Shown here piece by piece: positions 1 to 52,296 of a stretch of 52,523 bases of DNA. The DNA comes from a virus (taxonomy: Duplodnaviria; Heunggongvirae; Uroviricota; Caudoviricetes), in the IMG/VR virus record IMGVR_UViG_2537561965_000009, one strand, 5' to 3'. Within the stretch, counting starts at the first letter, position 1, and each line of letters opens with the position of its first letter. The translations under genes and the position numbers were made by a program. The notes under the pieces were generated by a model, which saw only the letters and a list, made by a program, of their open reading frames with translations, had not been told where the DNA came from and ran no database searches.

Positions 1-1131
1 TCAAATGACCAGTTTTTTCCATTCCTTACCGCGTGCGTCGTTGTAAATATCGGTCATTTTTTGATTCGAATGGCCTAGCAAAATTTTGGTATCAACCCCC
101 TGCTCTCTGAACAATCGCTCTGATAAAGATCTCTGCTCATGGAAAGAGGGTGGGGTGCCATTAGCACGCCAGTTGTAATCCACAGAATCCCGGGCTTTTT
201 TAAATGCAACGGTTAATGTTGCTGGCTTAACCATCCCGCCGCGCTTAGCTGTCCCTTTCGCGTGATGGTGGTGCAATAGCCACGGACTAAGAACGCAATC
301 GCGGCAGGATGACACTACATCATCCAGGGTGAGATTTAATTTATCGCAACGCAGAGCCAGAGGGATGGCAATCCGGGTTCCTGTTTTTTGCTGTTCGACA
401 TGAAGATAACCATCCCGGATATCCGAAAATTGCATTTTGCAAATATCTGAAAGGCGCTGGCCTGTCATCAGTGCCAGCAGCATACCGCGCTGTAAAAAGT
501 AACCATCCTTTTCCGCTGCGTTATAAATCATCATCCACTCATCAAAAGTCAGTCGCTGTCTTGATATCCGCACCTGCGGTTTTTTTGCCGATTCTGCAGG
601 GTTAAAGCCTGGCGGGACATCGCCCGTTTGCTGAGCTTCCCGGAAAACATCGATCAGTACTTTCCTGAAAATTTGTCCCATTCTGTTATGTCCTCTGGCC
701 TTGTACTCTTCCAGTACTGATACCACATCTTTTACGGTTATGGCATCTAACGGTCTGGTGCCAAAACGTTCATCAAATACCCTGAGAGGGGCCGCTTTCT
801 GTTTCAGCGTGTTGAGTTTGATCTCGCCGTTTTCATATCTTTCCTGTTGAATTTTTCTGTAATTATTCAGAAAAATGGTAACGGTTGATGAACCGCCGGT
901 ATCACTAATAATTTTCTCCTGCAGACTGAGCATTTGTTCCATTTGCTGCCGGGCAAGACGGCTGTTCGCTTCTGCTGCAATAGTTTCTGCCAGTTTCTGG
1001 TCAATACTGCCGAGACCGTGATTTTTGCCTGTTATGGGATGCCTGTAACGCCAGTAAACTTTGTTATTTCTTTTGTCAAAATACGGAGATAATCCCGGAA
1101 CATCGGTTTTATATTTTCGCGGGCGCGCCAT
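1..1131 (-). CDS. int: phage integrase (tyrosine recombinase)
   Basis: 376-aa ORF with ATG at 1131 and stop at 1-3; leftmost prophage gene; its 5' end is overlapped by a small excisionase-like ORF. Confidence 0.85.
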   Translation of the reverse strand: MARPRKYKTDVPGLSPYFDKRNNKVYWRYRHPITGKNHGLGSIDQKLAETIAAEANSRLARQQMEQMLSLQEKIISDTGGSSTVTIFLNNYRKIQQERYENGEIKLNTLKQKAAPLRVFDERFGTRPLDAITVKDVVSVLEEYKARGHNRMGQIFRKVLIDVFREAQQTGDVPPGFNPAESAKKPQVRISRQRLTFDEWMMIYNAAEKDGYFLQRGMLLALMTGQRLSDICKMQFSDIRDGYLHVEQQKTGTRIAIPLALRCDKLNLTLDDVVSSCRDCVLSPWLLHHHHAKGTAKRGGMVKPATLTVAFKKARDSVDYNWRANGTPPSFHEQRSLSERLFREQGVDTKILLGHSNQKMTDIYNDARGKEWKKLVI

Positions 1132-1357
1132 CTTCCAGTATCCTCTTCAAAGCAGGGTGATCTGTGGCGATCACCTCCGGCTTGTTTACCATTCCGACAA
1201 AGCGAGCTTGCGGATCCACTCGCCAGCGTCTCCCAACTTTTTTGGGGAGAGGAAATATCATTCCGGCTTTAGCGTATTTACTTAACGTACTCGGAGTAGG
1301 GACCGGTTCACTGAATTCCTCTTTTGCCCACTCAGTGAGCAGAATAAGTCTTGCCAT
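1109..1357 (-). CDS. xis: excisionase-like DNA-binding protein
   Basis: 82-aa basic ORF directly upstream of and overlapping int (ATG at 1357); contains a KKVGRRWRV-type motif typical of small Xis/AlpA-like proteins. Confidence 0.7.
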   Translation of the reverse strand: MARLILLTEWAKEEFSEPVPTPSTLSKYAKAGMIFPLPKKVGRRWRVDPQARFVGMVNKPEVIATDHPALKRILEDGAPAKI

Positions 1358-1421
1358 GAGCGTCGTTCGCTAATCATGGTCGCCGCCACTATAGCTGGTG
1401 GGCAACGACCGGGGTTGAACA

Positions 1422-3893
1422 TTAAAAATCAGCCTGATTCGGGATCAGTTTTTGCCAGATAACTGAAACGTATTTTGCCTGGTAACGGGCGTCATCAAGT
1501 GCATTATGGCGCTCACCTTCGAATGGAATAGCCGTTCTGGCATCGAAGTCTATGGCTTTCCCCAGCTCAACGATTGTGCGTACATCGCGATCGTTGTAGT
1601 AACGCCATGGGCAGGGGATCCCCTGCCGTTCGTATGAACGGCGCAAAATCGTGTTGTCGAAGTTGGCTCCATTTCCCCAGACCTGAACAAAAAATTCGCC
1701 GGAGTTTTCGTCGATAAATTCCCGCAATTGCAGCAGTGCATCATCTAACGGGATTTCATCGGTCAGAATGGCAGATTGCGCCTCCCGTGATTGCTTAAGC
1801 CACCATTTAATGGTGCCACGATCAATGACTCCGCCAGCAGTATCCATATCGATGGTCTTACTAAATTCCGGCCCCATATCTCCGGTTTGCGGATCGAAAA
1901 ATATTGCACCTATTGAGATAAGCGGGGCATCGGGATTTTTTCCCATGGTTTCAAGGTTGATCATCATGTGGTGCCACATTCTGCTGGTGGATGTGATAAC
2001 GTGATGACCGTTCATCGCAATTAAGGGATCTGCCGTCTCGCCAGTTTCACTATCGCTGGCGTGATCCTGAGCGCTACCAGCATTCTCCTTGTGTGGATGT
2101 TCAGCGCCTTCCATTTCCTTCGGATCATTTTCCTGAACTTCAACCTGATTCTCTTCATCGAATGTTTCCTGGTATGTTGCGTCGCCCATTACCGCGCCAC
2201 AATCAGGGCAGTTGCCACCACCGCTTTGACCGCAGGCGGTGCAGACTTTTTCCGGTTCCTGTTGCGCTACTGGCTCAGGTTGTTTCGTTTCTGGCTCGTT
2301 TTGTAACGCATTTGGGCTGTTTTGTTCCGCTTTCTGGCCGTTCTGTTCCGTTTCTTGTTGGTTCTGATTCACTGAATCGCGGGTTTCAATCCCCTTCACC
2401 CATTTCGGATCATTCGGGTCGCTAATCCCTGCAACAAATTCACCACGTGATACAGCAAGCAACTTATTGGCGTCAGGCTGGCTGATATTGGCTGCCTGCA
2501 TAATTTTGTTTACTTCGTCAGCGGTAACTTTTACCGGCTCTGGTTGTGCGATCGTGTCAGATGCACCAGTATTTTGTTGTGAACCTGAGTATGTACTGTT
2601 TTTGCGGGCGAAATATTCTTCTTTCGTGATTTCAGTAGCCCCGGCAGCCAGCGCCTTATCCAGACCAGAAAGTTTGTTTGCGCGACCGTATTTTTCGCCA
2701 TCCTTGTCGGTGAAGAGGAAGTAGAACGGCCCTTCACGCTCTACAGATGGTTCGACTTCCACTTTGCATTCGGTTTTTTCGTTGTCCGGAATTGCCGTTT
2801 CCACTGCATCAGTTTCTGGTACTGGCGACGAGAGAGTATCAGTTGCGCTCTGATTTCTTCCTTCATCTTCAAACACGCCCTTTGTAGTCAGGTATTCAGT
2901 AATGTATTTGTTCAGTGCCACAGGGTCTTTGTGAATGTCGATCGGACGTTCACGGACAAGGCCAAAAATAGTCTGGCGGTCGTAGCGAAGGGCATCAGGC
3001 TGTTTGCGCATTGATGCCGAGATACGCTTCCAGTCTTCGCGGTCGTTGTCGATAACTTCATTTTTTGCCCAGCGATGGATGCTGCCGTCAATGTTTCCGG
3101 CATCCACATCACCAGGCCAGAGAGCGTAGGCCAGTTCGTCATCCAGTGTTTTCCATGTCTGCTTGTATTCGCGATGAATGGCAGCAATGACCGGGCTGAT
3201 TTTTCCTGTTGAATTTTCACTGTGCTGTTGATTGGTTCTGGCGCGGGCGAGATCAACAACAGACGTGTATTTTCCGGTTTCCTTGCGTTCACCTTCGCGA
3301 CGTTTTTTCCAGATGCGCATCTCTGCCTGAATTTCGGGCCATTTGGCACCAGGCTTACATTTATGCTTAACCCACCCGATGGCATGCAGCTTAAGCTCCG
3401 GATACATGGCGTTAACTTCTGGCATTTTCATCAACGCTTCAACGATATGTCCGTCGAATGTTGCCATGTCTTCCTGCAACAATTCCTGTGCGCTAATAAC
3501 CATATCAACGGTGATGTTTTCACATGTGTCGAACTTAACCATGACAGCGTTCTGTACTTCAGGGGACAGCTTGTCAAAATTGACGTTCATCGGATCGGAT
3601 TCTGGTTCGACCGGAATAAAGGAAGCGGATTCCTCATCCCAGCGGTTTTCCTGCATATATTCAGCATCCCAGGAATCGAGGGCAGGGCGGGGTATACCGG
3701 GTTTATCCTCGCAGACAAGAAATTTATAAGCGCAGTCCTGAGCAGCCGGATAATGTTCCAGGAATTGCCAGTGAAATTTTGCGCGGGCGCGACGTTCATC
3801 ACCGGCTTCAATGGCAGTGGCTACAGCGACGGCACCTTCTTCCTTTATTGCCTGTTCGTCCGGAATGGCGGCGCAAATAAAGACTTTACTCAT
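1422..3893 (-). CDS. large prophage exonuclease (often annotated exodeoxyribonuclease VIII-like); C-terminal DnaQ-like 3'-5' exonuclease motifs
   Basis: 823-aa ORF, GAGG Shine-Dalgarno before ATG 3893; C-terminal domain has Exo II-like GNGANFDNTIL and Exo III-like HNALDDARYQA motifs; central Cys4 cluster CTACGQSGGGNCPDCG; acidic linker. Confidence 0.6.
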   Translation of the reverse strand: MSKVFICAAIPDEQAIKEEGAVAVATAIEAGDERRARAKFHWQFLEHYPAAQDCAYKFLVCEDKPGIPRPALDSWDAEYMQENRWDEESASFIPVEPESDPMNVNFDKLSPEVQNAVMVKFDTCENITVDMVISAQELLQEDMATFDGHIVEALMKMPEVNAMYPELKLHAIGWVKHKCKPGAKWPEIQAEMRIWKKRREGERKETGKYTSVVDLARARTNQQHSENSTGKISPVIAAIHREYKQTWKTLDDELAYALWPGDVDAGNIDGSIHRWAKNEVIDNDREDWKRISASMRKQPDALRYDRQTIFGLVRERPIDIHKDPVALNKYITEYLTTKGVFEDEGRNQSATDTLSSPVPETDAVETAIPDNEKTECKVEVEPSVEREGPFYFLFTDKDGEKYGRANKLSGLDKALAAGATEITKEEYFARKNSTYSGSQQNTGASDTIAQPEPVKVTADEVNKIMQAANISQPDANKLLAVSRGEFVAGISDPNDPKWVKGIETRDSVNQNQQETEQNGQKAEQNSPNALQNEPETKQPEPVAQQEPEKVCTACGQSGGGNCPDCGAVMGDATYQETFDEENQVEVQENDPKEMEGAEHPHKENAGSAQDHASDSETGETADPLIAMNGHHVITSTSRMWHHMMINLETMGKNPDAPLISIGAIFFDPQTGDMGPEFSKTIDMDTAGGVIDRGTIKWWLKQSREAQSAILTDEIPLDDALLQLREFIDENSGEFFVQVWGNGANFDNTILRRSYERQGIPCPWRYYNDRDVRTIVELGKAIDFDARTAIPFEGERHNALDDARYQAKYVSVIWQKLIPNQADF

Positions 3894-5688: not shown

Positions 5689-6366
5689 ATGTCCATCATT
5701 TTTAATGGACACTATCGTATGAAACACCGGACCTGGATCACTGAAGCTTTACGTCTTCACTTTGAAGAACATTTACCCCGGGTTGTGGCCGGGCGTCGCC
5801 TGGGTGTACCAAAATCAACAGTTTGTAGTATGTTCGTGCGCTTTCGGAGAGCTGGCCTTTCGTGGCCTTTGCCCGCAGGCATGTCGGAGCAGGAACTTGA
5901 TGCCTGCCTTTACGGACAATTTTCCACGGTACCAGTCGTACGTCCTGAAAGCACCGTTATATCCGAAGCCCCCGTGGTAAAAAAACGTCCCCGGCGGCCC
6001 AACTTCCCTTATGAGTTTAAAATCGCCTTAGTGGAGCAGTCACTGCAGCCCGGAGCCTGTGTGGCGCAGATCGCCCGGGAAAACGGAATCAACGATAACC
6101 TGCTCTTCAACTGGCGCCATCAATACCGGAAAGGTGGCCTGCTGCCTTCCGGAAAAAATATGCCGGCACTGCTTCCCGTGACGTTAACGCCGGAGCCGGA
6201 TAATAAAATCCCGGCCCCCGCACAGGAACCAGAGCAGATAAATACACCGTCCGACAGTCTGTGTTGTGAGCTGGTTCTGCCGGCCGGAACTCTCAGGCTT
6301 AAAGGTAAACTGACGCCGGCGTTATTACAGACACTTATCCGCGAAATAAAAGGGAGCAGCCACTGA
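5689..6366 (+). CDS. IS66-family accessory protein TnpA (HTH)
   Basis: 225-aa ORF with IS3/IS66 orfA-like HTH segment FKIALVEQSLQPGACVAQIARENGINDNLLFNWRHQYRKGG; stop overlaps start of tnpB. Confidence 0.7.
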   Translation: MSIIFNGHYRMKHRTWITEALRLHFEEHLPRVVAGRRLGVPKSTVCSMFVRFRRAGLSWPLPAGMSEQELDACLYGQFSTVPVVRPESTVISEAPVVKKRPRRPNFPYEFKIALVEQSLQPGACVAQIARENGINDNLLFNWRHQYRKGGLLPSGKNMPALLPVTLTPEPDNKIPAPAQEPEQINTPSDSLCCELVLPAGTLRLKGKLTPALLQTLIREIKGSSH

Positions 6367-6713
6367 TGATATCTCTCCCTGCAGGTTCGCGTATCTGGCT
6401 GGTTGCAGGTATCACCGATATGCGAAATGGCTTTAACGGCCTGGCATCAAAAGTTCAGAACGTCCTGAAGGATGACCCGTTCTCCGGACACCTGTTCATC
6501 TTCCGCGGACGCCGGGGTGACCAGATAAAAGTGTTGTGGGCTGACAGTGACGGACTGTGCCTCTTCACCAAACGCCTGGAGCGGGGCCGCTTCGTCTGGC
6601 CAGTCACCCGTGACGGCAAGGTGCACCTTACTCCGGCTCAGTTATCCATGCTTCTTGAAGGTATCAACTGGAAGCACCCGAAACGAACGGAACGCGCTGG
6701 AATCCGCATATAA
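6366..6713 (+). CDS. IS66-family TnpB
   Basis: 115-aa ORF MISLPAGSRIWLVAGITDMRNGFNGL... characteristic of IS66 orfB. Confidence 0.8.
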   Translation: MISLPAGSRIWLVAGITDMRNGFNGLASKVQNVLKDDPFSGHLFIFRGRRGDQIKVLWADSDGLCLFTKRLERGRFVWPVTRDGKVHLTPAQLSMLLEGINWKHPKRTERAGIRI

Positions 6714-6732
6714 CCCGTTGTAAAGTGAGGAT

Positions 6733-8304
6733 ATGGACACCTCACTTGCTCATGAGAACGCCCGCCTGCGGGCACTGTTGCAGACGCAACAGGACACCAT
6801 CCGCCAGATGGCCGAATATAACCGCCTGCTCTCACTGCGGGTGGCGGCTTATGCTTCCGAAATCAACCGGCTGAAGGCGCTGGTTGCGAAACTGCAACGT
6901 ATGCAGTTCGGTAAAAGCTCAGAAAAACTTCGTGCAAAAACCGAACGGCAGATACAGGAAGCACAGGAGCGAATCAGCGCACTTCAGGAAGAAATGGCGG
7001 AAACGCTGGGTGAGCAATATGACCCGGTACTGCCATCCGCCCTGCGCCAGTCTTCAGCCCGTAAACCGTTACCGGCCTCACTTCCCCGTGAAACCCGGGT
7101 TATCCGGCCGGAAGAGGAATGCTGTCCTGCCTGTGGTGGTGAACTCAGTTCTCTGGGATGTGATGTGTCAGAGCAACTGGAGCTTATCAGCAGCGCCTTT
7201 AAGGTTATCGAAACACAACGTCCGAAACAGGCCTGTTGCCGGTGCGACCATATCGTGCAGGCACCAGTACCTTCAAAACCCATTGCACGCAGTTATGCCG
7301 GAGCGGGGCTTCTGGCCCATGTTGTCACCGGGAAATATGCAGACCATCTGCCGTTATACCGCCAGTCAGAAATATACCGTCGTCAGGGAGTGGAGCTGAG
7401 CCGTGCCACACTGGGGCGCTGGACAGGTGCTGTTGCTGAACTGCTGGAGCCGCTGTATGACGTCCTGCGCCAGTATGTGCTGATGCCCGGTAAAGTCCAT
7501 GCTGATGATATCCCCGTCCCGGTCCAGGAGCCGGGCAGCGGTAAAACCCGGACAGCCCGGCTGTGGGTCTACGTCCGTGATGACCGTAACGCCGGTTCAC
7601 AGATGCCCCCGGCGGTCTGGTTCGCGTACAGTCCGGACCGGAAAGGTATCCATCCACAAAATCACCTGGCCGGTTACAGCGGTGTGCTTCAGGCCGATGC
7701 TTACGGTGGTTACCGGGCGTTATACGAATCCGGCAGAATAACGGAAGCCGCGTGTATGGCTCATGCCCGGAGAAAAATCCACGATGTGCATGCAAGAGCG
7801 CCCACCTACATCACCACGGAAGCCCTGCAGCGTATCGGTGAACTGTATGCCATCGAGGCAGAGGTCCGGGGCTGTTCAGCAGAACAGCGTCTGGCGGCAA
7901 GAAAAGCCAGAGCCGCGCCACTGATGCAGTCACTGTATGACTGGATACAGCAACAGATGAAAACACTGTCGCGTCACTCAGATACGGCAAAAGCGTTCGC
8001 ATACCTGCTGAAACAGTGGGATGCACTGAACGTGTACTGCAGTAATGGCTGGGTGGAAATCGACAACAACATCGCAGAGAACGCCTTACGGGGAGTGGCC
8101 GTAGGCCGGAAAAACTGGATGTTCGCGGGTTCCGACAGCGGTGGTGAACATGCGGCGGTGTTGTACTCGCTGATCGGCACATGCCGTCTGAACAATGTGG
8201 AGCCAGAAAAGTGGCTGCGTTACGTCATTGAACATATCCAGGACTGGCCGGCAAACCGGGTACGCGATCTGTTGCCCTGGAAAGTTGATCTGAGCTCTCA
8301 GTAA
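6733..8304 (+). CDS. IS66-family transposase TnpC
   Basis: 523-aa ORF with N-terminal coiled-coil and Cys-rich CPACG...CCRC region typical of IS66 transposases. Confidence 0.85.
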
Positions 8305-19166: not shown

Positions 19167-19242
19167 GGCCCTTTAGCTCAGTGGTGAGAGCGAGCGACTC
19201 ATAATCGCCAGGTCGCTGGTTCAAATCCAGCAAGGGCCACCA
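19167..19242 (+). tRNA. ileZ: tRNA with CAU anticodon, ileX-like (tRNA-Ile2)
   Basis: 76-nt cloverleaf GGCCCTT...AAGGGCCACCA with anticodon loop CUCAUAA; closely resembles E. coli ileX as recalled; same position as ileZ in Stx-type phages. Confidence 0.8.
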
Positions 19243-19249
19243 TCACATA

Positions 19250-19326
19250 CCGCCATTAGCTCATCAGGAAAGAGCGCCAGCCTTCGAAGCTGGTTGCGCG
19301 GGGTTCAAGTCCCCGATGGCGGTCCA
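19250..19326 (+). tRNA. argN: tRNA-Arg (anticodon UCG)
   Basis: 77-nt cloverleaf with acceptor CCGCCAT/ATGGCGG, anticodon loop CUUCGAA, T-arm CGGGGTTCAAGTCCCCG and encoded CCA. Confidence 0.75.
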
Positions 19327-19339
19327 TTATCTGCATCAT

Positions 19340-19416
19340 GCGTTGTTAGCTCAGCCGGACAGAGCAATTGCCTTCTAAGCAATCGGTCACTGGTTCGAAT
19401 CCAGTACAACGCGCCA
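19340..19416 (+). tRNA. argO: tRNA-Arg (anticodon UCU)
   Basis: 77-nt cloverleaf GCGTTGT...ACAACGCGCCA with anticodon loop CUUCUAA. Confidence 0.8.
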
Positions 19417-19707
19417 CACTTATTTTCCCTGGCTCGCTTTTGTGGGCCTTTTTTTTAAATGTCTCACAATTTAGGCGGTTGACTGTTGTCTGGTTTGCGG
19501 GGAGTTTGTTAAAAGAAACTGGCATGGTGAATCCCCCTGTGCGGAGGGGCAATCAGCGAGTAGGTATATGGGATAATCGCGGATTCAGGTGCTGGTACTG
19601 AATTCACCGGGAGGCACCCGGCACCATGCAATGGCACATAGCGCCACTCTCCAGCCCCTCTCCGGAGGGGCTGTTTATATTGATTTTGTCAGATGTGAGT
19701 AAACTGC

Positions 19708-20043
19708 TTATGGACTTTGTTGTTTTAGCCCATAAGGACATATTTGCAGAGTGCAACGGTTATTAAAGCATTCATTCAATACGTTATCTGTATTTGTAGG
19801 GCATTCCTGGCTGTTTTTGATTAAATTCCAGAATGTTTTATTGAATGGTACTACGTTGTAAATGGTTACAGGTAGCACTTTGTTATTGAGCATGATGCCT
19901 GTGTGAGTCAGTGTAAATATACTTTCAGGAGGTAAGAAAGCATCCGATTGATACCAGATTATTAATTTTATTTTACTCCATATGACTGAAAAAGATATTC
20001 CGCATGATGGCTGGATAACTGTATCAATCACAATCCACTTCAT
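19708..20043 (-). CDS. orphan hypothetical protein at the stx-equivalent position
   Basis: 111-aa ORF in a very AT-rich segment between the tRNA genes and the esterase gene, opposite in orientation to the late operon; AAGGA-like SD; no family recognised. Confidence 0.35.
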
Positions 20044-20303
20044 TTAGTTTCCTTGTTTATGCCTTGCTGGTGATGTTCTGAAAAGTATAAATGATATTTT
20101 TGATTGTAAACCATAGAGCAGAATTATTTTTCTGATGTTGTTTATTGTTTATTTAAATGCAGGGTGGTTTATATCTCGTCTTGTAGTTTATCCATGCATA
20201 TCTGCTTGATGATGAGGTTTTTATTTAAGGTATGGTTTTGTGTTTTTTCTGTATTACATGTCAGGTATTTTAAAGAATCATTTTTCAGATGGTGGAAAGA
20301 ACC

Positions 20304-42041: not shown

Positions 42042-45000
42042 ATGGGTAAAGGCAGCAGTAAGGGGCATACCCCGCGCGAAGCGAAGGACAACCTGAAGTC
42101 CACGCAGCTGCTGAGTGTGATCGATGCCATCAGCGAAGGGCCGGTTGAAGGTCCGGTGGATGGATTAAAAAGCGTGCTGCTGAACAGTACGCCAGTGCTG
42201 GACACTGAGGGGAATACCAACATCTCCGGTGTCACGGTGGTGTTCCGTGCCGGTGAGCAGGAGCAGACACCGCCGGAGGGGTTTGAATCCTCCGGCTCCG
42301 AGACGGTGCTGGGTACGGAAGTGAAATATGACACGCCGATCACCCGCACCATTACGTCTGCAAACATCGACCGACTGCGCTTTACCTTCGGTGTGCAGGC
42401 ACTGGTGGAAACCACCTCAAAGGGGGACCGGAATCCGTCGGAAGTTCGCCTGCTGGTTCAGATACAGCGTAATGGTGGCTGGGTGACGGAAAAAGACATC
42501 ACCATTAAGGGCAAAACCACCTCGCAGTATCTGGCCTCGGTGGTGGTGGATAATCTGCCGCCGCGCCCGTTCAACATCCGGATGCGCAGGATGACGCCGG
42601 ACAGCACCACAGACCAGCTGCAGAACAAAACGCTCTGGTCGTCATACACCGAAATCATCGATGTGAAACAGTGCTACCCGAACACGGCACTGGTCGGCGT
42701 ACAGGTGGATTCGGAGCAGTTCGGCAGCCAGCAGGTGAGCCGTAATTATCATCTTCGCGGGCGTATTCTGCAGGTGCCGTCGAACTATAACCCGCAGACG
42801 CGGCAATACAGCGGTATCTGGGACGGAACGTTTAAGCCAGCATACAGCAACAACATGGCCTGGTGTCTGTGGGATATGCTGACCCACCCGCGCTACGGCA
42901 TGGGTAAACGTCTTGGTGCGGCAGATGTGGATAAATGGGCGCTGTATGTCATCGGCCAGTGTTGCGACCAGTCGGTGCCGGACGGTTTTGGCGGCACGGA
43001 GCCGCGCATCACCTGTAATGCGTACCTGACCACACAGCGTAAGGCGTGGGATGTTCTCAGTGATTTCTGCTCGGCGATGCGCTGTATGCCGGTATGGAAC
43101 GGGCAGACGCTGACGTTCGTGCAGGACCGACCATCAGATAAGGTGTGGACCTATAACCGCAGTAATGTGGTGATGCCGGATGATGGCGCGCCGTTCCGCT
43201 ACAGCTTCAGCGCCCTGAAGGACCGCCATAATGCCGTTGAGGTGAGCTGGATTGACCCGAACAACGGCTGGGAGACGGCGACAGAGCTTGTTGAAGATAC
43301 GCAGGCCATTGCCCGTTACGGTCGTAATGTCACGAAGATGGATGCCTTTGGCTGTACCAGCCGGGGGCAGGCACACCGCGCCGGGCTGTGGCTGATTAAA
43401 ACGGAACTGCTGGAGACGCAGACCGTGGATTTCAGCGTGGGTGCTGAAGGGCTTCGCCATGTACCGGGCGATGTCATTGAAATCTGCGATGATGACTATG
43501 CCGGTATCAGCACCGGTGGTCGCGTGCTGGCGGTAAACAGCCAGACCCGGACGTTGACGCTCGACCGTGAAATCACGCTGCCATCCTCCGGTACCACGCT
43601 GATAAGCCTGGTTGACGGAAGTGGTAATCCGGTCAGCGTGGAGGTTCAGTCCGTCACCGACGGCGTGAAGGTGAAAGTGAACCGGGTTCCTGACGGCGTT
43701 GCAGAATACAGCGTGTGGGGGCTGAAGTTGCCGACGTTGCGTCAGCGCCTGTTCCGCTGTGTGAGTATCCGTGAGAACGATGACGGCACGTATGCCATCA
43801 CTGCCGTGCAGCATGTACCGGAAAAAGAAGCCATCGTGGATAACGGGGCGCACTTTGACGGCGACCAGAGCGGCACGGTGAATGGTGTCACGCCGCCAGC
43901 GGTGCAGCACCTGACCGCCGAAGTCACCGCAGACAGTGGGGAATATCAGGTGCTGGCCCGCTGGGACACGCCGAAGGTGGTGAAGGGCGTGAGCTTCCTG
44001 CTTCGCCTGACCGTGGCAGCGGATGACGGCAGTGAGCGGCTGGTCAGCACGGCCCGGACGACGGAAACCACATACCGCTTCACGCAACTGGCGCTGGGGC
44101 GTTACATGCTGACGGTCCGGGCGGTAAATGCGTGGGAGCTGCAGGGCGATCCGGCATCGGTATCGTTCCGGATTGCCGCACCGGCAGCGCCGTCTCGGAT
44201 TGAGCTGACACCGGGCTATTTTCAGATAACCGCCACGCCACATCTTGCGGTTTATGACCCGACGGTACAGTTTGAGTTCTGGTTCTCGGAAAAACGGATT
44301 GCGGATATCAGGCAGGTTGAAACCACAGCCCGCTATCTTGGTACGGCGCTGTACTGGATAGCCGCCAGTATCAATATCAAACCGGGCCATGATTATTACT
44401 TTTATATCCGCAGTGTGAACACCGTTGGCAAATCGGCATTCGTGGAGGCCGTCGGTCGGGCGAGCGATGATGCGGAAGGTTACCTGGATTTTTTCAAAGG
44501 CAAGATAACCGAATCCCATCTTGGTAAAGAGCTGCTGGAAAAAGTCGACCTGACGGAGGATAACGCCAGCAAACTGGAGCAGTTTTCGAAAGAGTGGAAG
44601 GATGCTAACGATAAGTGGAATGCCATGTGGGGCGTCAAAATTGAGCAGACCAAAGACGGTAAACATTATGTCGCGGGTATTGGCCTCAGCATGGAGGACA
44701 CGGAGGAAGGCAAACTGAGCCAGTTTCTGGTTGCCGCCAATCGTATCGCGTTTATTGACCCGGCAAACGGGAATGAAACGCCGATGTTTGTGGCGCAGGG
44801 CAACCAGATATTCATGAACGACGTGTTCCTGAAGCGCCTGACGGCCCCCACCATTACCAGCGGTGGAAATCCACCGGCATTTTCCCTGACACCGGACGGA
44901 AAGCTGACCGCTAAAAATGCGGATATCAGTGGCAGTGTGAATGCGAACGCCGGGACGCTCAACAATGTCACGGTAAATGAAAACTGTACGATTAAGGGCA

Positions 45001-45455
45001 TGCTGGAGGCGACTCAGGTCAGAGGTGACTTCGTTAAAGCTGTATCCAAATCATTCCCGAAACAGGCTGGTACGTGGGGTAATACGGAAACACCAAACGG
45101 GACGGTTACAGTCACCATCAGCGATGATCATAACTTTGACCGTCAAATCATTATTCCGCCCATTATCTTTAACGGAATAGCGTATAGCGATCCGGGAAGT
45201 GGTAATAACCCGGGAGGTACAAGATACACGGGTTATGGTTTTGAAGTTCGCAAAAACGGTGTATTAATCGCATCCAGAGAAACTAAAGGGGCCATTCCCG
45301 GTAGCTACAGTGCGGTTATTGATATGCCGAGTGGCAGGGGAAGCGTCACTCTGGAGTTTAAGGTTTTCCATAAAGGCAATCAGCGGGCAGGTAATATCAC
45401 CGACTGTACGGTGATTGTGACCAAAAAAGCGGCTTCAGGCATCAGTATTCGTTGA
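42042..45455 (+). CDS. J: central tail fibre / host specificity protein J
   Basis: 1137-aa ORF; lambda J-like over most of its length, with the last roughly 150 residues divergent from lambda J as I recall it. Confidence 0.9.
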
Positions 45456-45477: not shown

Positions 45478-45501
45478 GGCGTCAGGAATGACGCCTTTTT
45501 T
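45478..45501 (+). terminator. rho-independent terminator after J
   Basis: GGCGTCA-GGAA-TGACGCC hairpin followed by TTTTTT. Confidence 0.65.
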
Positions 45502-45525
45502 ATTGCAGAAAAGCGAGAGGTAATT

Positions 45526-46125
45526 ATGCGTAAAGTTTGTGCAGCCATTTTGTCCGCAGCCATTTGTCTGGCCGTATCCGGTGCGCCTGCATGGGCGTCT
45601 GAACATCAGTCCACGCTGAGCGCGGGGTATCTTCATGCCCGGACCAACGTTCCCGGCAGTGATGATCTGAACGGGATTAACGTGAAATACCGTTATGAGT
45701 TTACGGATACGCTGGGGCTGGTGACGTCATTCAGCTATGCAGGAGACAAGAATCGCCAGCTGACCCATTACAGCGATACCCGCTGGCATGAAGATTCCGT
45801 TCGTAACCGCTGGTTCAGCGTAATGGCGGGGCCGTCTGTGCGCGTGAATGAATGGTTCAGCGCGTATGCGATGGCGGGTGTGGCTTACAGCCGTGTGTCG
45901 ACTTTCTCCGGGGATTATCTCCGCGTAACTGACAACAAGGGGAAAACGCACGACGTGCTGACCGGAAGTGATGACGGTCGCCACAGCAACACGTCTCTGG
46001 CGTGGGGAGCTGGCGTGCAGTTTAACCCGACCGAATCCGTGGCCATTGATATTGCTTATGAAGGCTCCGGCAGTGGCGACTGGCGCACTGACGGTTTCAT
46101 CGTGGGTGTCGGTTATAAGTTCTGA
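45526..46125 (+). CDS. lom: Lom-family outer-membrane beta-barrel protein (Ail/Lom/PagC-like)
   Basis: 199-aa ORF with signal peptide and a C-terminal ...DIAYEGSGSGDWRTDGFIVGVGYKF beta-barrel ending in Phe; GAGAGG SD. Confidence 0.85.
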   Translation: MRKVCAAILSAAICLAVSGAPAWASEHQSTLSAGYLHARTNVPGSDDLNGINVKYRYEFTDTLGLVTSFSYAGDKNRQLTHYSDTRWHEDSVRNRWFSVMAGPSVRVNEWFSAYAMAGVAYSRVSTFSGDYLRVTDNKGKTHDVLTGSDDGRHSNTSLAWGAGVQFNPTESVAIDIAYEGSGSGDWRTDGFIVGVGYKF

Positions 46126-46178: not shown

Positions 46179-46189
46179 GTGGGGTGAAT

Positions 46190-49100
46190 ATGGCAGTAAA
46201 GATTTCAGGTGTACTGAAAGACGGCACAGGAAAACCGGTACAGAACTGCACAATCCAGCTGAAAGCAAAACGTAACAGCACCACGGTGGTGGTGAACACG
46301 CTGGCCTCAGAAAATCCGGATGAAGCCGGGCGTTACAGCATGGACGTTGAGTACGGTCAGTACAGCGTTATTCTGTTGGTGGAAGGATTCCCGCCGTCAC
46401 ATGCCGGGACCATCACCGTGTATGAAGATTCCCGACCCGGTACGCTGAATGATTTTCTCGGTGCCATGACGGAGGATGATGCCCGTCCTGAGGCACTGCG
46501 CCGTTTTGAACTGATGGTGGAAGAGGTGGCGCGTAACGCGTCCGCGGTGGCACAGAACACGGCAGCCGCGAAGAAGTCAGCCAGCGATGCCGGCACATCA
46601 GCCCGTGAGGCGGCAACCCATGCGACTGATGCTGCAGGCTCAGCACGCGCAGCCAGCACGTCAGCCGGACAGGCTGCTTCGTCGGCTCAGTCAGCGTCTT
46701 CCAGCGCAGGAACGGCATCAACAAAGGCCACTGAAGCATTAAAAAGTGCTGCCGCTGCAGAGTCCTCAAAAAGCGCGGCGGCTACCAGTGCCGGTGCGGC
46801 GAAAACGTCAGAAACGAATGCGGCAGCGTCACAACAATCAGCAGCCACTTCTGCATCCACCGCGACTACGAAAGCGTCAGAAGCAGCCACTTCAGCACGG
46901 GATGCGTCGGCTTCAAAAGAGGCGGCAAAATCATCAGAAACGAACGCAGCCTCGAGCGCCAGCAGCGCAGCTTCCTCGGCAACGGCGGCAGCAAATTCTG
47001 CGAAGGCGGCAAAAACGTCTGAGACAAACGCCAGGTCTTCTGAAACGGCAGCGGAACAGAGTGCCTCAGCTGCGGCAGGCTCAAAAACAGCGGCTGCGTC
47101 GTCTGCCAGTGCAGCGTCAACAAGTGCCGGGCAGGCCTCAGCCAGTGCCACCGCCGCCGGAAAATCGGCAGAAAGCGCCGCATCGTCTGCTTCAACAGCC
47201 ACAACGAAGGCTGGCGAAGCCACTGAACAGGCCAGCGCAGCAGCGAGGTCTGCTTCCGCAGCGAAGACATCCGAAACGAACGCGAAAGCGTCGGAAACCA
47301 GCGCAGAATCCTCAAAAACGGCTGCCGCATCGTCCGCCAGTTCGGCGGCGTCATCGGCATCATCTGCGTCTGCTTCAAAAGATGAGGCGACCAGACAAGC
47401 GTCAGCAGCGAAGAGCAGCGCCACGACGGCATCCACGAAGGCAACAGAGGCGGCAGGCAGTGCGACGGCAGCATCTCAGAGCAAAACTACTGCTGAATCC
47501 GCTGCGACCCGTGCGGAAGCTGCTGCTGATCGTGCTGAAGAGATTGCCGGTGCAGTTGCGATGGAAGACGCAAGCCTTACAACTAAAGGTGTTGTGAAAC
47601 TTAGCAGTGCTGTTGATAGCACCAGTGAATCGCTGGCCGCAACGCCAAAAGCAGTTAAAGCAGCCAATGACAATGCGAATAGCAGGGTGCCATCTAACCG
47701 AAAAGTTAACGGAAAAGCACTGACTGCGGATATAACATTAACGCCGAAAGATATTGGTACTTTAAATTCAGTAACGATGTCTTTCTCTGGCGGGGCTGGG
47801 TGGTTCAAACTGGCTACGGTTACCATGCCACAAGCGAGTTCCATCGTTTACATCGCATTGATTGGTGGCGCTGGTTACAACGTCGGTTCCCCACATCAGG
47901 CAGGCATTTCAGAACTGGTTCTACGAGCAGGCAATGGAAACCCCAAAGGAATTACCGGGGCTTTGTGGAAGCGTACAGCCGTCGGATTAACGAATTTCGC
48001 CTGGATCAACACATCCGGCGATACATATGATATTTACGTTGAGATTGGCAATTATGCGACGAGTGTAAATATCCATTGGGATTGTACTGCAAATGCGTCA
48101 GTTTCTGTTTATACCTCGCCAACATATTCAGCGAGTAAGCCTTCCAGCGTTACCTATGGTGTTGTTTATACGATGTATAGCTCACATCAGAAACCTACAC
48201 CATCAGATATTGGAGCACTGCCAACAACCGGAGGAACAGTTTCAGGTCCGTTGTCTGTTACAGGTGGATTAACTGGTTCATTGAATGGTAATGCAAGTAC
48301 AGCCACGAAATTGCAGACGGCAAGATCTATCGGTGGAGTTGTTTTCGACGGTTCTGCAAATATTAACCTTCCAGGTGTAAACACTACGGGTAATCAGAAC
48401 ACCACTGGTAATGCTGCAACTGCTACAAAACTTCAGACTGCAAGAAAAATATCCGGTGTTCCATTTGATGGTTCTACTGATATCACTTTAACCGCCGCGC
48501 ATGTGGCTGCTTTTGCCAGAAGGGCAACGGATACATATGCCGATGCGGATGGTGGCGTTCCCTGGAATGCCGAATCAGGCGCTTACAATGTCACCCGCTC
48601 TGGCTACACCTATATTCTGGTTAACTTCTATACCGGAGTCGGAAGTTGCCGGACCCTGCAGATGAAGGCGCATTACAGAAATGGAGGTCTGTTCTACCGT
48701 TCCTCAAGAGATGGCTATGGTTTTGAGGAAGGCTGGGCAGAAGTTTATACCTCGAAAAATCTTCCACCAGAAAGCTACCCAGTTGGCGCACCAATCCCGT
48801 GGCCATCAGATACCGTTCCGTCTGGTTATGCCCTGATGCAGGGGCAGACTTTTGACAAATCTGCTTACCCGAAACTTGCAGCGGCTTATCCGTCAGGCGT
48901 GATCCCTGATATGCGTGGCTGGACGATTAAGGGCAAGCCCGCCAGTGGTCGTGCCGTATTGTCTCAGGAACAGGATGGCATTAAATCGCATACCCACAGC
49001 GCCAGCGCATCCAGTACGGATTTGGGGACGAAAACCACATCGTCGTTTGATTACGGCACTAAATCCACGAATAACACCGGGGCGCATACCCATAGTATTA

Positions 49101-49468
49101 GCGGGACCGCAAATAGTGCCGGTGCGCACCAACACAAGAGTTCCGGTGCATTTGGTGGCACGAACACGAGCATTTTCCCTAATGGTTATACCGCGATTTC
49201 AAATCCAAGCGCGGGGATTATGAGCACAACAAGCGGTAGTGGCCAGACTCGTAATGCAGGGAAGACATCATCAGATGGTGCTCATACCCACTCGCTGTCC
49301 GGCACAGCAGCATCTGCAGGTGCACATGCACATACTGTCGGTATTGGTGCGCATACGCACTCGGTTGCGATTGGTTCACATGGACACACCATCACCGTTA
49401 ACGCTGCTGGTAACGCGGAAAACACCGTCAAAAACATCGCATTTAACTATATTGTGAGGCTTGCATAA
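46190..49468 (+). CDS. stf: side tail fibre protein Stf (long form with Ala/Ser-rich repeat array and His-rich distal tip)
   Basis: About 1092 aa from ATG 46190; N-terminus [26 protein letters not shown] (lambda Stf-like); long A/S/T-rich repeats containing KTSETNA units; C-terminal HxH-rich segment [20 protein letters not shown]...[18 protein letters not shown] typical of fibre tips. Confidence 0.85.
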
Positions 49469-50049
49469 TGGCATTCAGAATGAGTGAACAACCACGGACC
49501 ATAAAAATTTATAATCTGCTGTCCGGAACTAATGAATTTATTGGTGAAGGTGATGCATATATTCCGCCTCATACAGGTCTGCCAGCAAACAGTACCGACA
49601 TTGCACCGCCAGATATTCCAGCTGGCTTCGTGGCTGTTTTCAACAGTGATGAGTCATCGTGGCATCTCGTTGAAGATCATCGGGGTAAAACGGTTTATGA
49701 CGTGGCTTCCGGCGACGCGTTATTTATTTCTGAACTCGGCTCATTACCGGAAAATGTCACCTGGTTATCCCCGGAAGGGGAGTTTCAGAAGTGGAACGGC
49801 ACAGCCTGGGTGAAAGATGCAGAAGCAGAAAAACTATTCCGGATCCGGGAGGCGGAAGAAACAAAAAACAGCCTGATGCAGGCAGCGAATGAGCATATTG
49901 CGCCACTTCAGGATGCTGTAGATCTGGAGATCGCAACGGAGGAAGAAACTTCGTTGCTGGAAGTCTGGAAAAAGTATCGGGTGTTGCTGAACCGTGTTAA
50001 TACAACAACTGCTCCGGATATTGAATGGCCAGTAGCACCTATAGGGTAA
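49468..50049 (+). CDS. tfa: tail fibre assembly protein Tfa
   Basis: 193-aa ORF, ATG overlapping the stf stop. Confidence 0.85.
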
Positions 50050-50970: not shown

Positions 50971-51552
50971 CTTTATCAATGACTTATCTCCCGACTTCCC
51001 GCCTTGCTTTTCCTAAACAGAACAATCGTAGAATATTCTTGAAGGGTTAGATCGTCACTGTTTTCTGTTCGATACTGTGACATTCAGCACTTGATTCGCT
51101 ATGGATCTGACAGGAAGGTTTTGAGCGAAAATTTGCAGTTATTCAGTCGTTTTCTTATCGGTCACCATTATTCTTTTAGACATTGATCCTACAAAGCTGC
51201 CGCAAAGTTGGTGGTAGGAACTGAAGTTGCGTAGAGAAGGGGTCAATACCCGGAGGCAAACATGGGCTGGCAAAAGTGTAGCGGTATTAGGCGCAGCTAT
51301 TTAGCCTAGTTATGTTTTATGAAAACTTGATATCATATAAGTGTCTTACTTATTGGCTGTAAATAAGTTTTTCCTAAGGAATTGTTTCTTGAGTATCATT
51401 TGTAACTGTAACGGAATTTATAATCCTTTGCTTTATTGTTACGGTATTTTTTATCACACCCTATTTTTAGTGGTTTTTTATACTGAAGTTTGGCAAAGTG
51501 AACTTTATATACATATACTTCATCCTGGTTTCAGTTAAATTGGGTGGATGAT

Positions 51553-52296
51553 ATGGCAACTACATGTTCAGTTATATTGATTTTGGAGTCCTTTGATGTT
51601 TATTTCGGAAAAGAGAGTGTGTTTCTGGAGAGAGGTTCATCTGTACTTGTCGACTCTAGCTCTAGAGATTTTTTCCTGACATATCCTGAAAGAGTGATAG
51701 TGGCGGATTTTGGCGCTGAGTTTATTAGTCGCTATTTGAAAGCTAATAACTTAAGGGATATTTCTGATTGTAGGGAATATCCATCTTATTTAAAAATAAA
51801 CTTTGCTGACTTCAGTTTAATTAAAGGATTAATTAGTTGGGCTAATCACTGTGCTGAATACATAGAAATTTTTGATGAGTCTATTGCTTTTACATGTCTC
51901 TCTGCATTTTCTTCTGAAAAACAATTTGGAGTATTTCTGTTTGAATGTTTGAAAAGCACAGGGGCTAAAGTTAAAACGATTATTCATACGGATTTATCTG
52001 CACCATGGCGTCTTAAGGATATATCATCAAGATTATATCTCAGCGAAAGTTTACTAAAGAGGAAATTGAAAGAAGAGGGGGTATCATTCAGTAAGATCAT
52101 ACTTGATGAGAGGATGCAAATGGCTGAATATTTACTCTGCACTCGTTGTTATCCTATTAGTAAAGTAGCTAAGGTCTGTGGTTATGCCAGTGTCTCATAC
52201 TTTACTTATGTATTTAGACGTTATTTTGGTGTTTCTCCAAGTCAATACTCTCAGAGGAGTTCAGAAAGTAAAATTCTTACTCACCAGGGAATCTGA
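51553..52296 (+). CDS. AraC-family transcriptional regulator (AT-rich, outside the prophage)
   Basis: 247 aa from ATG 51553; C-terminal double-HTH region ...ISKVAKVCGYASVSYFTYVFRRYFGVSPSQY typical of AraC/XylS proteins; low-GC codon usage. Confidence 0.7.
   Translation: MATTCSVILILESFDVYFGKESVFLERGSSVLVDSSSRDFFLTYPERVIVADFGAEFISRYLKANNLRDISDCREYPSYLKINFADFSLIKGLISWANHCAEYIEIFDESIAFTCLSAFSSEKQFGVFLFECLKSTGAKVKTIIHTDLSAPWRLKDISSRLYLSESLLKRKLKEEGVSFSKIILDERMQMAEYLLCTRCYPISKVAKVCGYASVSYFTYVFRRYFGVSPSQYSQRSSESKILTHQGI

Follow-up and report, generated by a model that had tools for sequence, protein, structure and literature searches.

A phage 434-type receptor-binding module at the end of gene J in a lambda-related prophage points to OmpC, rather than LamB, as the probable receptor

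Work dating back to the 1970s established that the C-terminus of the tail protein J is exchangeable, with the 434 (OmpC) and lambda (LamB) host-range alleles as the contrasting types. OmpC serves as the receptor of phage 434, and replacing J of lambda with the 434 gene switches binding from LamB to OmpC (PMC3509688, PMC11101478, PMC12502783). In lambda itself, the receptor-binding domain (RBD) is trimeric and Ig-like and sends four distal loops into the extracellular lumen of the porin; the base widens, the change runs up the fibre, and the tail tip opens (PMC11101478). Natural variants swapped in from lambda residue 964 re-target lambda particles from LamB to OmpC (PMC11338833). Here, we analyzed the J gene of a 52,523-nucleotide stretch of viral DNA assigned to the Caudoviricetes (IMG/VR record IMGVR_UViG_2537561965_000009), the whole of which is referred to below as the window. 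A sequence-only reading had described its J protein as lambda-like along most of its length, with roughly 150 divergent C-terminal residues that keep the fold and probably select a receptor other than that of lambda.

The J translation, which ends in ...[21 protein letters not shown], contains six gpJ Pfam domains in canonical order (FNIII-A_GpJ, Phage-tail_3, Ig_J, Ig_J_second, Phage_Tail_Tip and Ig_GpJ_C), all above their curated cut-offs, and it matches the lambda J chains 8iyk and 9e7m over its full length. The gene is located in a tail gene cluster (Table 1), where the ORFs on its 5' side match lambda L, K and I by size and those on its 3' side were identified as lom, stf and tfa by Pfam. 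A terminator is annotated in the 434 record at the relative position equivalent to that of the hairpin after J, and another terminator-like hairpin is found after lom. The side tail fibre gene product is mosaic, with phages ev099 and mEp332 giving the best phage matches at ~94% identity over 81% of the query. We considered whether J might be a relic in a defective prophage, without current adsorption function. The IS66-family element in the early region lends this some weight, since such an insertion could leave this prophage copy without any tail expression, as does strain FAM21845, in which 100% identical RBD DNA is found in the frameshifted J of a different prophage. We nevertheless judge a relic to be highly improbable, given that the window J runs uninterrupted for 1137 codons and is gap-free against 434 J, and that the complete set of head, tail, stf and tfa genes is present as apparently intact ORFs. 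In addition, the objection concerns expression and leaves the identity of the module at the end of J unaffected.

Table 1. Features of gene J and its surroundings, with positions counted from the first letter of the window
Feature	Position	Strand	Basis and remarks
IS66-family element, prophage early region	5689-8304		
Gene J (tip attachment / central tail fibre protein)	42042..45455	+	Intact single ORF, 1137 aa; ORF list and translation
J hub, FNIII/Ig, helical shaft and beta-prism fibre part (aa 1-969)	42042..44948	+	Common to lambda and 434; Pfam Phage-tail_3, FNIII-A_GpJ, Ig_J, Ig_J_second, Phage_Tail_Tip
Conserved junction box, encodes [18 protein letters not shown]	44894..44948	+	55 nt identical in window, lambda and 434; directly 5' of the divergence
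434-type receptor-binding module of J (aa 970-1137)	44949..45452	+	Sequence identity to 434 J, Pfam, model
Ig-like RBD proper (aa 1001-1136)	45042-45449	+	Pfam Ig_GpJ_C
Intrinsic-terminator-like hairpin 3' of J	45478..45502	+	7-bp stem with 5 G-C pairs, then T run
lom-like outer-membrane protein gene (Ail/Lom family), 434-type	45526..46125	+	Pfam Ail_Lom, E 2e-123
Side tail fibre (Stf), 1094 aa, second host-range determinant	46184..49468	+	Pfam phage_tail_N and Collar
Tail fibre assembly chaperone (Tfa)	49468..50049	+	Pfam Caudo_TAP, E 2.5e-43

When J was aligned with lambda J (J02459), residues 1-969 were found to be 97.6% identical to lambda, bearing out the description of the protein as lambda-like over most of its length, and the same residues are 97.9% identical to 434. 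Counted in bins of 50 residues, 45-50 of 50 positions agree with lambda through residue 950, followed by 38/50, 21/50, 15/50 and 13/43, and at the DNA level the identity of 91-100% per 100 nt drops to about 55%. Residues 970-1137 are only 39.1% identical to lambda, with three indels, and a three-way alignment of lambda, 434 and the window places the DNA break at ~44949-44962. The pairwise alignment proposed in the sequence-only reading therefore finds C-termini that are not identical, and the divergent end is real, but it extends over ~168 residues rather than ~150 and begins ~30 nt upstream of position 44980, where its start had been placed. Because the switch from ~98% to ~39% identity is abrupt, we regard it as a mosaic junction and not as the product of drift, chance or gradual divergence. 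The motif encoded by the junction box is nearly invariant in all RBD types compared, and the box lies at the point (lambda aa 964) where working gpJ chimeras were joined (PMC11338833). As judged from these alignments, the box is likely a recombination site between the fibre shaft and an exchangeable receptor-binding module.

The module is of the same type as that of phage 434, for which we used the records OL657226 (wild type) and OL657227. Over residues 970-1137, 159 of 168 positions are identical to wild-type 434 J (OL657226; 94-95%) with zero gaps, and the full-length proteins, both of 1137 aa, align gap-free at 97.3% identity. The downstream Lom is likewise 96% identical to 434 Lom as opposed to 45% to lambda Lom, so lom belongs to the exchanged block, which starts at J codon ~970. 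A matrix of pairwise module identities gives the window 94% with 434, 39% with lambda and 43-49% with three further lineages. The nine differences from wild-type 434 (positions 970, 978, 980, 1004, 1008, 1009, 1019, 1049 and 1099) all fall at sites where 22 representative 434-type sequences also vary among themselves, which identifies the window RBD as an ordinary natural haplotype of the 434-type family. Other polymorphic sites in the family are 1050, 1108, 1110 and 1115, two of which also distinguish 434B and lambda h434, both laboratory derivatives, from wild-type 434 (D1050N and R1115W). By sequence identity, the divergent end of J is thus the phage 434 ('h434') host-range module, a classical, characterized and already known allele with identical sequences in public phage and genome records. 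Two other possible assignments of the module were rejected. The OmpC-binding A8 and 1A2 modules of Brodel et al. (A8 taken from PDB 9wca and 1A2 from the PMC11338833 supplement) belong to separate lineages of the matrix, at 46% for P0050, an A8-like sequence in which the A8 PDB fragment occurs unchanged, and at 44% for the 1A2-like P0112. The RBD of phi330, an EHEC siphophage that depends on OmpC, shares just 35-40% identity with the 434 RBD and so represents another lineage.

At residues 1001-1136, Pfam Ig_GpJ_C (PF12421) scores 90.4 bits against a gathering threshold of 26.2. This family is described in Pfam as 'Tip attachment protein J, C-terminal receptor binding domain'. An AlphaFold2 model of the RBD, built from a 22-sequence alignment, is all-beta with a mean pLDDT of 79.5, and represents a monomer, from which specificity cannot be read. 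Searched with Foldseek, the model gave 9wcb, 8xck, 9wca and 8xcj as its top PDB matches (E 4e-16 to 3e-15, TM ~0.66-0.72), which are, respectively, A8 gpJ with OmpC, lambda in the closed state, A8 in the closed state and lambda with LamB. Both the assignment of the divergent C-terminus as the receptor-binding domain and the retention of its fold, as put forward in the sequence-only reading, agree with the Pfam hit and with the gpJ RBDs matched by the model. At the level of the predicted structure, this confirms that the Ig-like beta-sandwich of the gpJ RBD is conserved despite the sequence divergence.

We consider it very probable that the 3' end of J and lom together form a 434-type cassette joined at the junction box to a J body common to lambda and 434, and that the porin recognized is OmpC. 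For the haplotype of the window, homology to 434 and the published genetics make OmpC, not LamB, the most likely receptor, so that the earlier suggestion of a non-lambda receptor is supported by the gap-free, 95% identical 434-type module together with the reported OmpC use of 434 and is now specified, by homology, to OmpC. In J of the sequenced hybrid lambda h434 imm21, we found all diagnostic residues up to 681 to be of lambda type and those from 752 onward to be of 434 type, so that with a crossover between these points the h434 host range maps to the C-terminal third of J and the downstream DNA. Within this third, lambda and 434 are nearly identical to residue 969, with wholesale difference only in the last 168 residues. 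Since lom and stf of the hybrid are of 434 origin as well, classical genetics alone do not isolate these 168 residues. That the divergent module might still bind LamB, as the lambda module does, is very hard to credit, even though fold and domain family are shared with the LamB-binding lambda RBD and the trimeric porins LamB, OmpC and OmpF are approached in one common way (PMC11101478). The module shares just 39% of its residues with the lambda RBD and has three changes in loop length, it lacks the identity with the loops of lambda J residues 970-1132 that would mark a LamB-binding RBD of lambda type, and its 95% identical relative, 434, is the textbook OmpC-dependent lambdoid phage. No solved structure of a 434 RBD with OmpC was found in the PDB (2026 copy) or in the searched literature, the only OmpC complex being that of A8 (9wcb), with a 46% identical RBD. 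A 2026 receptor-prediction preprint explicitly excluded the lambda-type RBD from its GpJ alignments.

The variation within the 434-type family raises the question of whether the sub-allele in the window uses another porin, an extra co-receptor (e.g. OmpF, PhoE or OmpX) or certain OmpC variants only, and so has a host range materially unlike that of 434. The nine substitutions relative to wild-type 434 lie at recurrently polymorphic positions (1004, 1008, 1009, 1019, 1049, 1099 and others), the laboratory 434 derivatives vary at the further positions 1050 and 1115, and there are precedents for altered specificity: the OmpC-binding variants A8 and 1A2 distinguish one OmpC allele from another (PMC11338833), Gifsy-1 J binds OmpC, OmpX and BtuB (PMC12312913), and single J substitutions can widen the receptor use of lambda (PMC11101478). 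Since a single substitution can have this effect, nine could shift the preference among OmpC alleles. We still find a materially different host range quite improbable. There are zero indels relative to 434, and phi458, in which the last 152 J residues are 100% identical to those of the window, forms plaques on E. coli K-12 MC1061 (PMC9701743), while Ayreon, 99% identical to the window in module DNA, was isolated on a K-12 derivative. Growth of both on K-12, the same host background as that of 434, argues that the basic specificity is the same as that of 434. For the same-allele phages Ayreon, PhiR49_1, mEp332, phi458 and IdasGreatGrand and for the LF82 prophages, one of which has a 99% match to the module, we found no receptor tests in the searched literature. 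The papers found on these phages are genome announcements and phenotype studies, and for the GenBank PV3405xx accessions nothing relevant was found. It is also conceivable, although we think it unlikely, that the polymorphic sites of the family as a whole (1004, 1008, 1009, 1019, 1049 and 1099, with 1050, 1108, 1110 and 1115) mark receptor-contact loops that are being re-tuned to other OmpC alleles or to another porin. If this were true, the 434-type family, present in ~39% of E. coli genomes, would comprise several functionally separate specificities, not one, engaged in an arms race with variable ompC.

With OmpC as the probable receptor, the J product of the window would be expected to work as lambda J does. 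A trimer of the Ig-like domain at the tip of the central tail fibre would insert its distal loops into the trimeric outer-membrane porin, and porin binding would lead to opening of the tail tip and DNA ejection. This triggering mechanism is proposed by analogy with the lambda gpJ-LamB and A8 gpJ-OmpC structures, and entries for both states, closed and open, also exist in the PDB for A8 gpJ with OmpC.

To place the allele among natural E. coli, we counted the 434-type module (516 nt) in complete genomes at a threshold of at least 80% coverage and roughly at least 90% identity, and found it in 2092 of 5426, with up to seven copies per genome. The lambda-type module is present in 96 of the 5426, mostly laboratory lysogens, and the examples listed were DE3 lysogens and other laboratory strains. 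In natural E. coli, the lambda RBD thus appears as the rare allele and the 434 type as the common one. Of 50,697 phage records searched by tblastn with the final 152 residues, 74 gave matches at 90% identity or more, including phage 434, with all other hits below 60%. The phage records with the allele include Stx2c-, Stx1a-, Stx2a- and Stx2d-converting phages, a Cdt-I phage, Ayreon, mEp332 and several ECOR-derived phages. The allele types have long been known and the sequences are already public, so these results have little value as discovery. What is gained is a receptor annotation, by which entry via OmpC is predicted for this prophage and its many relatives, Stx1a-, Stx2c- and Cdt-converting phages among them, and the allele frequencies are relevant both to predicting the spread of toxin-converting phages and to choosing gpJ modules for engineered delivery particles.

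Among described systems, phage 434 J is a close counterpart of the J of the window, having the same length, a gap-free alignment (97.3% overall and 95% over residues 970-1137) and a 434-type lom downstream, and by homology OmpC specificity is expected to be common to both. The two differ by the nine RBD substitutions and in stf, which encodes 437 aa in 434 and 1094 aa in the window, and the remainder of the prophage is not that of 434. Lambda J (P03749; 8iyk, 8xcj and 8xck) shares residues 1-969 (~98%), the domain architecture, the RBD fold and presumably receptor-triggered opening, but it binds LamB through an RBD that is 39% identical to that of the window, with three loop indels. The natural A8 and 1A2 gpJ modules (PMC11338833; 9wca/9wcb) have the same junction at lambda aa 964, OmpC dependence and the shared fold, with 9wcb the best structural match, whereas RBD identities of 46% and 44% make them separate lineages. 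In phi458, Ayreon, the cdtI phage, PhiR49_1 and the O157:H7 Stx2c- and Stx1a-converting phages, the RBD is 99-100% identical in DNA or protein, indicating that they carry the same circulating allele; a search of the available papers found no published receptor assignment for any of them. The lambda-like J of Salmonella phage Gifsy-1 is similar by description, in that its C-terminal domain binds OmpC irreversibly and triggers ejection with a side fibre alongside, but its C-terminal region is 18% identical to that of lambda and also binds OmpX and BtuB (PMC12312913). The sole Salmonella J in our tblastn list, that of Fels-1, is 45% identical to the window RBD.

The J proteins of two laboratory derivatives that carry a 434-type end, phage 434B and the hybrid lambda h434 imm21, have N1050 and W1115 in the C-terminal receptor-binding domain (RBD), where wild-type 434 has D1050 and R1115; the window J agrees with wild-type 434 at both residues. 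These substitutions may represent host-range adaptation during laboratory passage, and both residues are among the sites that are naturally polymorphic in the 434-type RBD. We found RBD DNA 100% identical to that of the window in E. coli FAM21845 (NZ_CP017220, 17104-20516). The prophage that holds it there is not the same one, and its flanking genes are ynfN/gnsB/ydfO and pinQ/ydfK/ydfJ. As the J gene there is annotated as frameshifted, this shows that the 434-type RBD module also survives in decaying prophages.

The window prophage may itself be defective, because a complete IS66-family element is inserted in its early region. Both of its ends look complete, with a lambda-type integrase gene at the left, where an 823-aa ORF with a Rv2179c-like 3'-5' exoribonuclease domain is also found, and an AraC-family regulator gene at the right (see table).

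Coordinates of features in the window prophage
Feature	Position	Strand	Evidence or remark
Lambda-type integrase	1-1131	minus	left end
Left end with 823-aa ORF	1-3893
IS66-family element, complete	5689-8304		HTH transposase ORF, TnpB_IS66, DDE_Tnp_IS66
AbiLi-like ORF, 426 aa	15624-16904		PADLOC AbiLi model, E 9.6e-26
ORF, 177 aa	16904-17437
DNA methyltransferase, 349 aa	18068-19117		Pfam N6_N4_Mtase; PADLOC type II MTase, E 4e-166
tRNA genes and AT-rich interval	19167-20288
Small ORF in AT-rich interval	19708-20043	minus
SASA/DUF1737 esterase (nanS-p-like), 622 aa	20289-22157		next gene after tRNA/AT-rich interval
Side tail fibre region	46184-50049
AraC-family regulator	51544-52296		right end

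Two consecutive ORFs between a DUF968 gene and the methylase and tRNA genes may together form an AbiL-like abortive-infection moron. Its first member, the AbiLi-like ORF, also has a sub-threshold match to Pfam AAA_15, and the 177-aa ORF directly after it gave no match. The methyltransferase is probably an orphan phage methylase, since no adjoining restriction gene was noticed. Immediately downstream of it are three tRNA genes (Met-CAT, Arg-TCG and Arg-TCT), followed by approximately 870 bp of AT-rich DNA in which the small minus-strand ORF is the only one; this is the position of stx in Stx phages. No stxA-sized ORF is present between these tRNA genes and the esterase gene.

The side tail fibre of the window prophage is 1094 aa long, compared to 437 aa in phage 434, and is mosaic, with the best phage matches (ev099 and mEp332) at about 94% identity covering only 81% of it. 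Given this difference in length and the mosaic make-up, the predicted side-fibre specificity is unlike that of both 434 and lambda.
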